DNA of 64,000 bases from NCBI RefSeq assembly GCF_054482595.1, contig NZ_CM137008.1; one strand, given 5' to 3'. Numbering within the stretch: position 1 is the stretch's first letter; each line of letters begins with the position of its first letter. Of this stretch, positions 40,048 through 40,371 are shown piece after piece. The notes under the pieces were generated by a model. That model saw only the letters and a program-made list of their open reading frames with translations. It ran no database searches and was not told the origin of the DNA. The translations under genes were made by a program, and so were the position numbers.

Positions 40048-40371
40048 TTACCTCATTCTGCTCTTTTTTCTCAAATGACATATATTATATTTTACATCAT
40101 ATTCATAGGCATATGACATTCCCCCGCCCCCCATTATGTCATTGTGGGTTGATGTTGGGCTTTCATAAAAAAATACATCTTTTTTTGAACTAGCATTAAT
40201 TATATTTACTTTATATATTAAAATATTTTCTCCATCTGGAAATATTTTAGCCACACAATATAAAGCAGCTAAATCCGAATTACTTAAAAATACATTGTCA
40301 TCACTCATAACTCCAGCCATTAAATGACTGGAGACTAAAGCAAGGAAATAACAACATTGTATTGCCTTCAT
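40048..40371 (-). CDS. Candidate immunity protein for the adjacent Rhs C-terminal toxin (predicted signal peptide)
   Basis: Small ORF immediately downstream (2 nt gap) of the Rhs-CT stop; likely start MKAIQCCYFLALVSSHLMAGV... (hydrophobic N-terminus); AT-rich; classic toxin-immunity arrangement. Confidence 0.55.
   Translation of the reverse strand: MKAIQCCYFLALVSSHLMAGVMSDDNVFLSNSDLAALYCVAKIFPDGENILIYKVNIINASSKKDVFFYESPTSTHNDIMGGGGMSYAYEYDVKYNICHLRKKSRMR

Follow-up and report, generated by a model that had tools for sequence, protein, structure and literature searches.

The toxin domain DUF4329 was described by Zhang et al. 2012 (PMC3482391) as Tox-JAB-2 with a conserved pattern of E, H[ST]H, S, and D residues, and the YhhH family (PF15631, Imm-NTF2-2) was assigned in the same study as its immunity family. 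For the sister family Tox-JAB-1 these authors name Imm65 as the partner and report it to be a lipoprotein. Toxin JAB domains were predicted there to be nucleases, and the designation “RNase” is repeated in later papers; in the searched literature no experimental basis was found for the RNase or nuclease label of DUF4329, and all the papers found trace it to prediction.

The gene considered here, which abuts a DUF4329 tip in E. coli, is already annotated, and its immunity role was guessed before. The RefSeq product name of the ORF is “RHS element protein dsORF-f3”, annotated in thousands of genomes. In an in silico study of strain EDL933 (PMC7216683) the locus studied here is named “RhsB z5488 / RhsBI z5489”, where “RhsBI” is the frameshifted O157 copy z5489 of 57 aa, on which only weak TMEM126 and DND1 motif matches were reported. 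In a Salmonella SPI-6 survey based on SignalP 6 the partners of DUF4329-Rhs proteins, known by locus tag only, are listed as having neither signal peptide nor TM. Neutralisation or localisation data for the dsORF-f3 pair were not found in the searched literature. The extent of the family across genera, its conserved signal-like N-terminus, its cystatin/PepSY-like predicted fold, its covariation with the toxin cysteines, and the resulting doubt about the “RNase” label appear to be undescribed.

The explanation preferred here, which as a whole we hold to be probable though far from assured, is that dsORF-f3 is an exported cognate immunity protein of the DUF4329 tip and blocks the toxin in the periplasm. 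According to this explanation the gene would be the cognate immunity gene of an RhsF-type DUF4329 tip (Tox-JAB-2, a JAMM-like metallohydrolase), and its translation would be coupled to that of the terminal part of the Rhs gene; the first ~20 residues of its product would act as a Sec signal sequence, and the mature protein of ~86 residues would bind and block, in the periplasm, the toxin delivered by the type VI secretion of neighbours. By implication, if the immunity protein is exported, the DUF4329 clade with a pair of cysteines in the tip would act on an envelope target and not on cytoplasmic RNA.

The Rhs remnant and the dsORF-f3 reading frame

The analysed stretch of 64,000 nucleotides (the window) is E. 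coli chromosome with the gene order btuB … metF-metL-metB-metJ-yiiX … rpmE-priA-cytR, and strain XH990 is 100% identical to it across the region (identical record NZ_CP019359.1). A remnant of an Rhs element lies on the minus strand between yiiX and rpmE, where the following features were located:

42654 to 43076, minus strand: PAAR-like/DUF6531 fragment, N-terminal part of this Rhs gene, ORF MSGKPAARQGDMTQYGG… (ORF list, PGAP)
41414 to 42550, minus strand: ISEc1 (ISAs1-family, H-repeat) transposase pseudogene, which splits the Rhs gene (NZ_CP019359.1 annotation, ORF list)
40817 to 41407, minus strand: residual Rhs core with PF03527 and the PxxxxDPxGL region (Pfam RHS, E = 4.9e-15)
40373 to 40816, minus strand: Rhs C-terminal toxin tip, DUF4329 / Tox-JAB-2, after the DPLGL cleavage motif (Pfam DUF4329)
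40380 to 40385, minus strand: Shine-Dalgarno sequence AGGGAG, 8 nt 5' of the ATG and within the 3' end of the Rhs frame (sequence)
40048 to 40371, minus strand: dsORF-f3, candidate immunity gene, 107 aa and a TAA stop (ORF list, sequence, RefSeq product name)
39286 to 39995, plus strand: degenerate IS1 copy, ~50 nt past the dsORF-f3 stop (PGAP “IS1 family transposase, frameshifted”)

In the PGAP annotation the fragment at 42654 to 43076 is a “DUF6531 domain-containing protein, missing C-terminus”, and the residual core piece is “incomplete; missing N-terminus”, its N-terminal side having been removed by ISEc1. Of the toxin gene, only the 345 codons at the 3' end (41407-40373) adjoin dsORF-f3 in the window; the O55:H7 counterpart of the gene is intact with 4185 nt, and relative to it ~2.7 kb of Rhs core is absent from the window. 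Because the Rhs gene is split by ISEc1 and most of the core is missing, the locus cannot yield a deliverable toxin. The IS1 copy marks the end of the Rhs element; it occupies the identical position, ~50 nt after the dsORF-f3 stop, in every strain sampled, so that the insertion is old and part of the fixed right end of the element. In strain 2015C-4498 (L020, locus 5825-11323) the Rhs gene adjoins nikR/nikE and not rpmE, which points to a chromosomal rearrangement by recombination of this Rhs element with the rhsB locus. Elsewhere in the window a short “hypothetical protein”, WP_000660587.1, is annotated at 34011-34256 between metF and metL on the strand opposite to both. A scan of the locus for promoters and terminators gave nothing above chance.

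The preliminary description had proposed, with the strand unstated, an ORF of ~107 aa at 40048-40371 that starts 2 nt after the toxin stop, and this was borne out: the frame has 107 codons and a TAA on the minus strand, the Rhs stop occupies 40375-40373, and the ATG occupies 40371-40369 with one base between them. The N-terminus quoted there, MKAIQCCYFLALVSSHLMAGV, agrees with the sequence, and its remark that the ORF is AT-rich like the toxin tail holds as well, the GC content being 0.29-0.35 from ~39990 to 40830 versus 0.52-0.65 in the Rhs core. An alternative in-frame ATG lies upstream at 40407 and would give 119 aa; it was rejected, since its AAGGGA abuts the start codon directly and the homologues begin at the MK position. 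dsORF-f3 is a genuine coding frame and no accident of the sequence: besides the RefSeq annotation, its homologues at 26-48% identity keep the frame together with the invariant residues L29, GGGG81-84, Y87, Y89, C98, and M106. No match of dsORF-f3 to the Pfam and NCBIfam HMMs was obtained (in Pfam none even at E <= 10). One homologue (P0056) has GGGGGGG at the place of the invariant GGGG loop; thus the glycine-coding G-run, located at 40121-40132 of the window in E. coli, also varies in length, in frame.

The adjoining toxin tip was identified by a Pfam DUF4329 (PF14220) match with E = 6.7e-14 at aa 173-293 of a 306-aa fragment ORF, after DPLGL, and the same ORF contains the RHS core motif PF03527 (E = 4.9e-15). 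In an alignment of six DUF4329 tips E30, H74-T75-H76, S100, D103, C36, and C63 are invariant, with the two cysteines in the contexts …G-L-I-C-K… and …C-P…V-G-x-Y-H-T-H-G. The tip of the window keeps the E…HTH…S..D motif intact and is 34% identical to the K-12 RhsB tip, which has the same Cys pair. A sequence search of the PDB found no structure for the toxin tip or for dsORF-f3.

Toxin linkage, predicted fold, and the N-terminus

Among 5426 complete E. coli genomes dsORF-f3 was present in 2169, the toxin tip in 2168, and both were contiguous in 2164, so the co-occurrence that the preliminary description had named as a check is near-absolute in this species. An initial word-based search for homologues returned E. 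coli copies only; relatives at 26-48% identity emerged from an exhaustive search with HMMER and a subsequent one with a profile. All divergent homologues with readable context lie 1 nt after a DUF4329 tip or its remnant, or overlap it by 4 nt. In three metagenomic enteric loci (P0045, P0046, P0047) the tips are 70-72% identical to the tip of the window and the immunity proteins 46-48%. The Citrobacter homologue and two further ones (P0051 and P0052) likewise stand directly after a DUF4329 tip or remnant, and so do those of Rahnella and Acidovorax, which gave hhalign probabilities of 94% and 96% to the family, respectively. The Salmonella homologue is found in arrays in which orphan Rhs tips follow VgrG-Rhs. 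In one such array (L013, 1029-14675) the VgrG-Rhs(TseH)-Imm58 gene is followed by at least 5 orphan modules of an Rhs tip with an immunity gene, among them a pair of the DUF4329/dsORF-f3 type. A further hit, the 1983-aa repeat protein P0049, matched the hydrophobic segment only and was discarded as a composition artefact.

Such tight coupling, together with the linkage to DUF4329 tips across genera, is what marks a cognate immunity gene. The assignment of the ORF as a candidate immunity gene of the abutting Rhs-CT is thereby supported by position, by coupling, and by linkage both in E. coli and in the divergent homologues, and dsORF-f3 is judged from sequence to be the cognate immunity gene, with a probably exported product.

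Two parts of the protein have to be distinguished:

40309 to 40371, minus strand: putative Sec signal sequence, codons 1-21, MKAIQCCYFLALVSSHLMAGV (heuristic score, family alignment, AF2)
40051 to 40308, minus strand: mature domain of ~86 aa, with a helix at 31-43 and strands at 53-60, 63-70, 84-92, and 97-106

The mature domain is predicted to have a cystatin/PepSY/NTF2-like fold of one helix and four strands, with the invariant GGGG81-84 as a loop between strands 2 and 3 in the AF2 model. When AF2 was run on an alignment of 14 sequences the mean pLDDT was 73.7, with low values for residues 1-20 (51-53) and a confident domain; the run on the single dsORF-f3 sequence gave an unusable model (pLDDT 37.7). 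In Foldseek searches with the model nothing significant was found in the PDB, and AFDB returned family members only, plus weak PepSY and “NTF2 fold immunity” matches. The predicted fold class is compatible with the “NTF2-fold” label given by Zhang et al. to the E. coli Tox-JAB-2 immunity protein.

In the family the N-terminus is a hydrophobic segment of about 18-24 aa, usually with K or R near its start and with small residues before the conserved domain, which begins right after the segment at (V/I)(F/Y)L(S/T)N. The first ~20 alignment columns vary more than those of the remainder (mean entropy 1.74 versus 1.39 bits), and their hydrophobicity is much higher (mean KD 1.52 versus -0.31). Signal character was scored by a crude self-written heuristic of n/h/c-regions, which gives 3.7-4.7 for seven classic E. 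coli signal peptides and less than 2.7 for most cytoplasmic proteins of the window; the cytoplasmic FrwB of the window is a false positive with 3.22. dsORF-f3 scores 3.02, below FrwB and the weakest in the family (3.0-4.4). Thus the Sec-signal-like N-terminus claimed in the preliminary description is upheld by the family, in which this region is variable yet hydrophobic, and the score of the E. coli protein itself is borderline, so that the signal call rests on the family pattern and not on the E. coli sequence alone.

In the E. coli segment K2 is followed by CCYFLALV (8-aa mean KD 2.5), and the best 10-aa window reaches 2.11 versus 2.0-3.4 in the homologues. No family member has a weaker hydrophobic core than this protein (mean KD 1.62), in which S, S, H, and Y occur. 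Cleavage would probably occur after A20 or G21; the candidate sites are LMA/G, MAG/V, and VMS/D, none of them a canonical A-x-A, and the ends of the segment in homologues are better (ATG/E, AFG/G, ANA/N, CFA/Q). A lipoprotein (SPase II) signal was rejected, as no [LVI][ASTVI][GAS]C lipobox occurs in dsORF-f3 or in the homologues.

The missing A-x-A of the E. coli protein may also be read in another way, namely that the immunity protein carries an uncleaved signal-anchor, by which its domain is tethered to the inner membrane and faces the periplasm. The mean KD of about 1.55 for residues 5-23 is near the TM threshold, the positive charge before the segment and the acidic residues after it (MK…/…SDDN) fit an N-in, C-out orientation, and the weak TMEM126 match on the truncated O157 copy (PMC7216683) points in the same direction. 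On the other hand, most homologues have hydrophobic cores of 9-12 aa followed by small residues, which is typical of cleaved signals and too short for a stable TM helix, and we consider such anchoring unlikely.

Toxin cysteines, partner signals, and the state of the pair

A contig scan with peptide patterns derived from the toxin alignment returned 5 loci, the patterns being too narrow, and 12 toxin-partner pairs, which are few and phylogenetically non-independent, were sampled instead. In this sample every toxin with the Cys pair has a signal-bearing partner (9/9, including K-12 RhsB with YhhH), and every Cys-less toxin has a partner without the hydrophobic extension (3/3); the heuristic scores are 3.0-4.4 for the former nine partners and below 1.9 for the latter three. 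Of the Cys-less toxins two are PAAR-DUF4329 effectors linked to VgrG, and the third is an Rhs tip from Limnobaculum; the respective positions are Y and A/T/absent.

The alignment of the Limnobaculum partner with the family spans the mature domain in full, but this partner has no signal-like N-terminal segment. In comparisons by hhalign the family profile gave no significant match to this partner (E = 0.01), to that of locus L040 (E = 0.003), or to the PAAR-DUF4329 partner, and homology to dsORF-f3 is therefore not established for the YhhH, PAAR-DUF4329, Limnobaculum, and L040 partners; the Limnobaculum and L040 partners align end-to-end with the family despite the weak hhalign result. The proteins encoded after the VgrG-linked PAAR-DUF4329 effectors (L021:3426-3962 and L022:3343-3855) have 170-178 aa, no signal, no Pfam match, and a RANF[IV]R ending in common. 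By appearance they belong to a so far undescribed family of cytoplasmic immunity proteins, in which a domain is possibly present in two copies.

For the DUF4329 toxins with the Cys pair we infer a periplasmic action. A more specific proposal, which is possible but doubtful, is that DUF4329/Tox-JAB-2 exists in two compartment versions: the Rhs-borne Cys-pair clade, with signal-bearing immunity proteins, would be a periplasm-acting JAMM-type (iso)peptidase and not an RNase, its Cys-less PAAR-borne relatives, with cytoplasmic partners, would be intracellular, and the GGGG hairpin of the immunity protein would block the active site in the manner of cystatins. Such an enzyme would cut an envelope bond, for instance the one that joins Lpp to peptidoglycan or a cross-link within peptidoglycan.

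The partners of certain DUF4329 toxins (PAAR-DUF4329, Limnobaculum) are clearly cytoplasmic, which speaks against the preferred explanation. In the opposite assignment dsORF-f3 is a cytoplasmic immunity protein, its N-terminal segment is a helix buried in the fold or stems from a wrongly called start, and the toxin works as a nuclease or RNase in the cytoplasm. This would be in line with the nuclease role predicted by Zhang et al. 2012 (PMC3482391) and repeated later as “RNase”, with the PAAR-DUF4329 and Limnobaculum partners that are without any signal, with the “No” for signal peptide or TM in the SPI-6 table, in which the proteins are known by locus tag only, and with the borderline heuristic score in E. 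coli. However, the extension is present in every homologue paired with a Cys-pair toxin, though its sequence is unconserved, and AF2 gives no confident packing of the N-terminus on the domain. Moreover, the likely relative from Limnobaculum that is without the signal-like segment pairs with a toxin without cysteines, and no experiment behind the RNase label was found in the literature searched. A cytoplasmic site for dsORF-f3 seems accordingly quite improbable, and periplasmic neutralisation of the toxin by an exported protein remains the preferred explanation.

The pair is often half-dead in E. coli, and it is the immunity half that survives in the window. The frameshift alleles of dsORF-f3 in other strains map to one short region:

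40167 to 40186, minus strand: two homopolymer tracts in dsORF-f3, A7 at nt 186-192 and T7 at nt 199-205 (alignment to 15 other E. coli copies)

Among 29 evenly sampled full-length copies of dsORF-f3, 13 (~45%) have 322-323 nt and are frameshifted. In the alignment to 15 other E. coli copies two independent frameshift alleles lie in homopolymers. The first, A7 to A6 at ORF nt 186-192, is found in O157:H7, O55:H7, and CV261; the second, T9 to T8 at nt 197-205, belongs to the S23G/L34S allele, in which a synonymous A198T lengthens the T-run (frameshift alleles noted at L002, L019, L020, L028-L033). These homopolymer frameshifts could represent decay, phase variation, or assembly error. Both the Rhs gene and dsORF-f3 are intact in 2/16 sampled E. 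coli loci (the window, L002, L019, L020, L028-L039). Seven of the 9 genomes with a frameshifted dsORF-f3 keep an intact full-length (4.2-kb) Rhs-DUF4329 gene; with an intact dsORF-f3 the Rhs gene is intact in 2/7 genomes and broken in 5/7. The apparent anti-correlation (2/7 versus 7/9) does not reach significance by Fisher's test (p = 0.13), and the sampled strains are non-independent. dsORF-f3 is also more variable than the tip, with identity below 99% in 73% of the ORF copies versus 13% of the tip copies. With ~45% of copies frameshifted and 2/16 loci fully intact, the pair is not under strong maintenance in E. coli.

A producer would more readily tolerate the loss of immunity beside an intact Rhs toxin if that toxin did no harm in its own cytoplasm, and the “toxin intact, immunity frameshifted” state in EHEC-type strains would become understandable in the same way. 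As the Rhs gene is broken in the window, its intact dsORF-f3 could have no use other than orphan immunity to other E. coli, unless it is a relic. The frameshift frequency with its two alleles, the scarcity of loci with both genes intact, the destroyed Rhs gene of the window, and the variability of dsORF-f3 would all suit a decaying relic without current function, intact in the window only incidentally, but this is very unlikely, because the family is conserved as coding sequence across genera, orphan immunity would show just such an intact copy beside a dead toxin, some of the frameshifts may be homopolymer assembly errors, and decay is compatible with an ancestral immunity role and does not replace it.

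Comparison with known immunity systems

The module is carried by ~40% of complete E. coli genomes, with related ones in Salmonella, Citrobacter, Hafnia, Rahnella, and Acidovorax; nevertheless, neither Pfam nor NCBIfam has an HMM for the immunity family, and “RNase”, the routine label of the toxin, stems from prediction and not from experiment. If the immunity protein is exported, this label is probably wrong for the Cys-pair clade, and an envelope-acting JAMM-like enzyme, if true, would add a new activity to those of type VI effectors. The association of toxin cysteines with the partner signal also offers a simple testable rule for predicting the site of action of a polymorphic toxin.

RhsFI (ECs0604) of EHEC (PMC7618764) is an Rhs-linked E. 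coli immunity protein of similar name, which binds sRNA; identity of dsORF-f3 with it was rejected because both the locus and the toxin are different. Cystatins, PepSY, and the M4/M36 propeptides, which are protease-inhibitory, resemble dsORF-f3 at the fold level only, with 1-14% identity. The periplasmic immunity proteins of Tsi/Tai/Tgi/Tli type have as partners known peptidoglycan or lipid hydrolases of T6SS, whereas the partner of dsORF-f3 is a JAMM-like domain on an Rhs tip. Imm65 from Bacteroidetes is an exported partner of a JAB-type Rhs toxin (Tox-JAB-1), as dsORF-f3 would be, and offers a precedent for such export; it differs in having a lipobox, of which dsORF-f3 and its homologues have none, and in the toxin sub-family and host phylum.

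YhhH of K-12 is another of the nearest known counterparts. No sequence relation between YhhH and dsORF-f3 is detectable (BLASTP E = 0.075, hhalign probability 0.1%), the PF15631 HMM gives no match to dsORF-f3, and of the residues Y and W conserved in Imm-NTF2-2 (Zhang et al. 2012, PMC3482391) tryptophan is absent from dsORF-f3. The annotated start of K-12 yhhH (L003:5400-5783), MSAEF…, precedes an internal Met at position 6, and read from this Met 6 YhhH has a textbook signal peptide with a KK…R n-region and a TWA/Q site. In other respects YhhH is like dsORF-f3: it is small and stands downstream of a homologous DUF4329 tip with the same Cys pair (K-12 RhsB, 34% identical), it has a hydrophobic signal-like N-terminus, MVICKKILFRNCVIVSLFVFTYNTWA/QC, with the Pfam domain confined to residues 60-127, and the predicted fold classes, of a helix and a sheet, NTF2/cystatin-like, may be similar in the two proteins.
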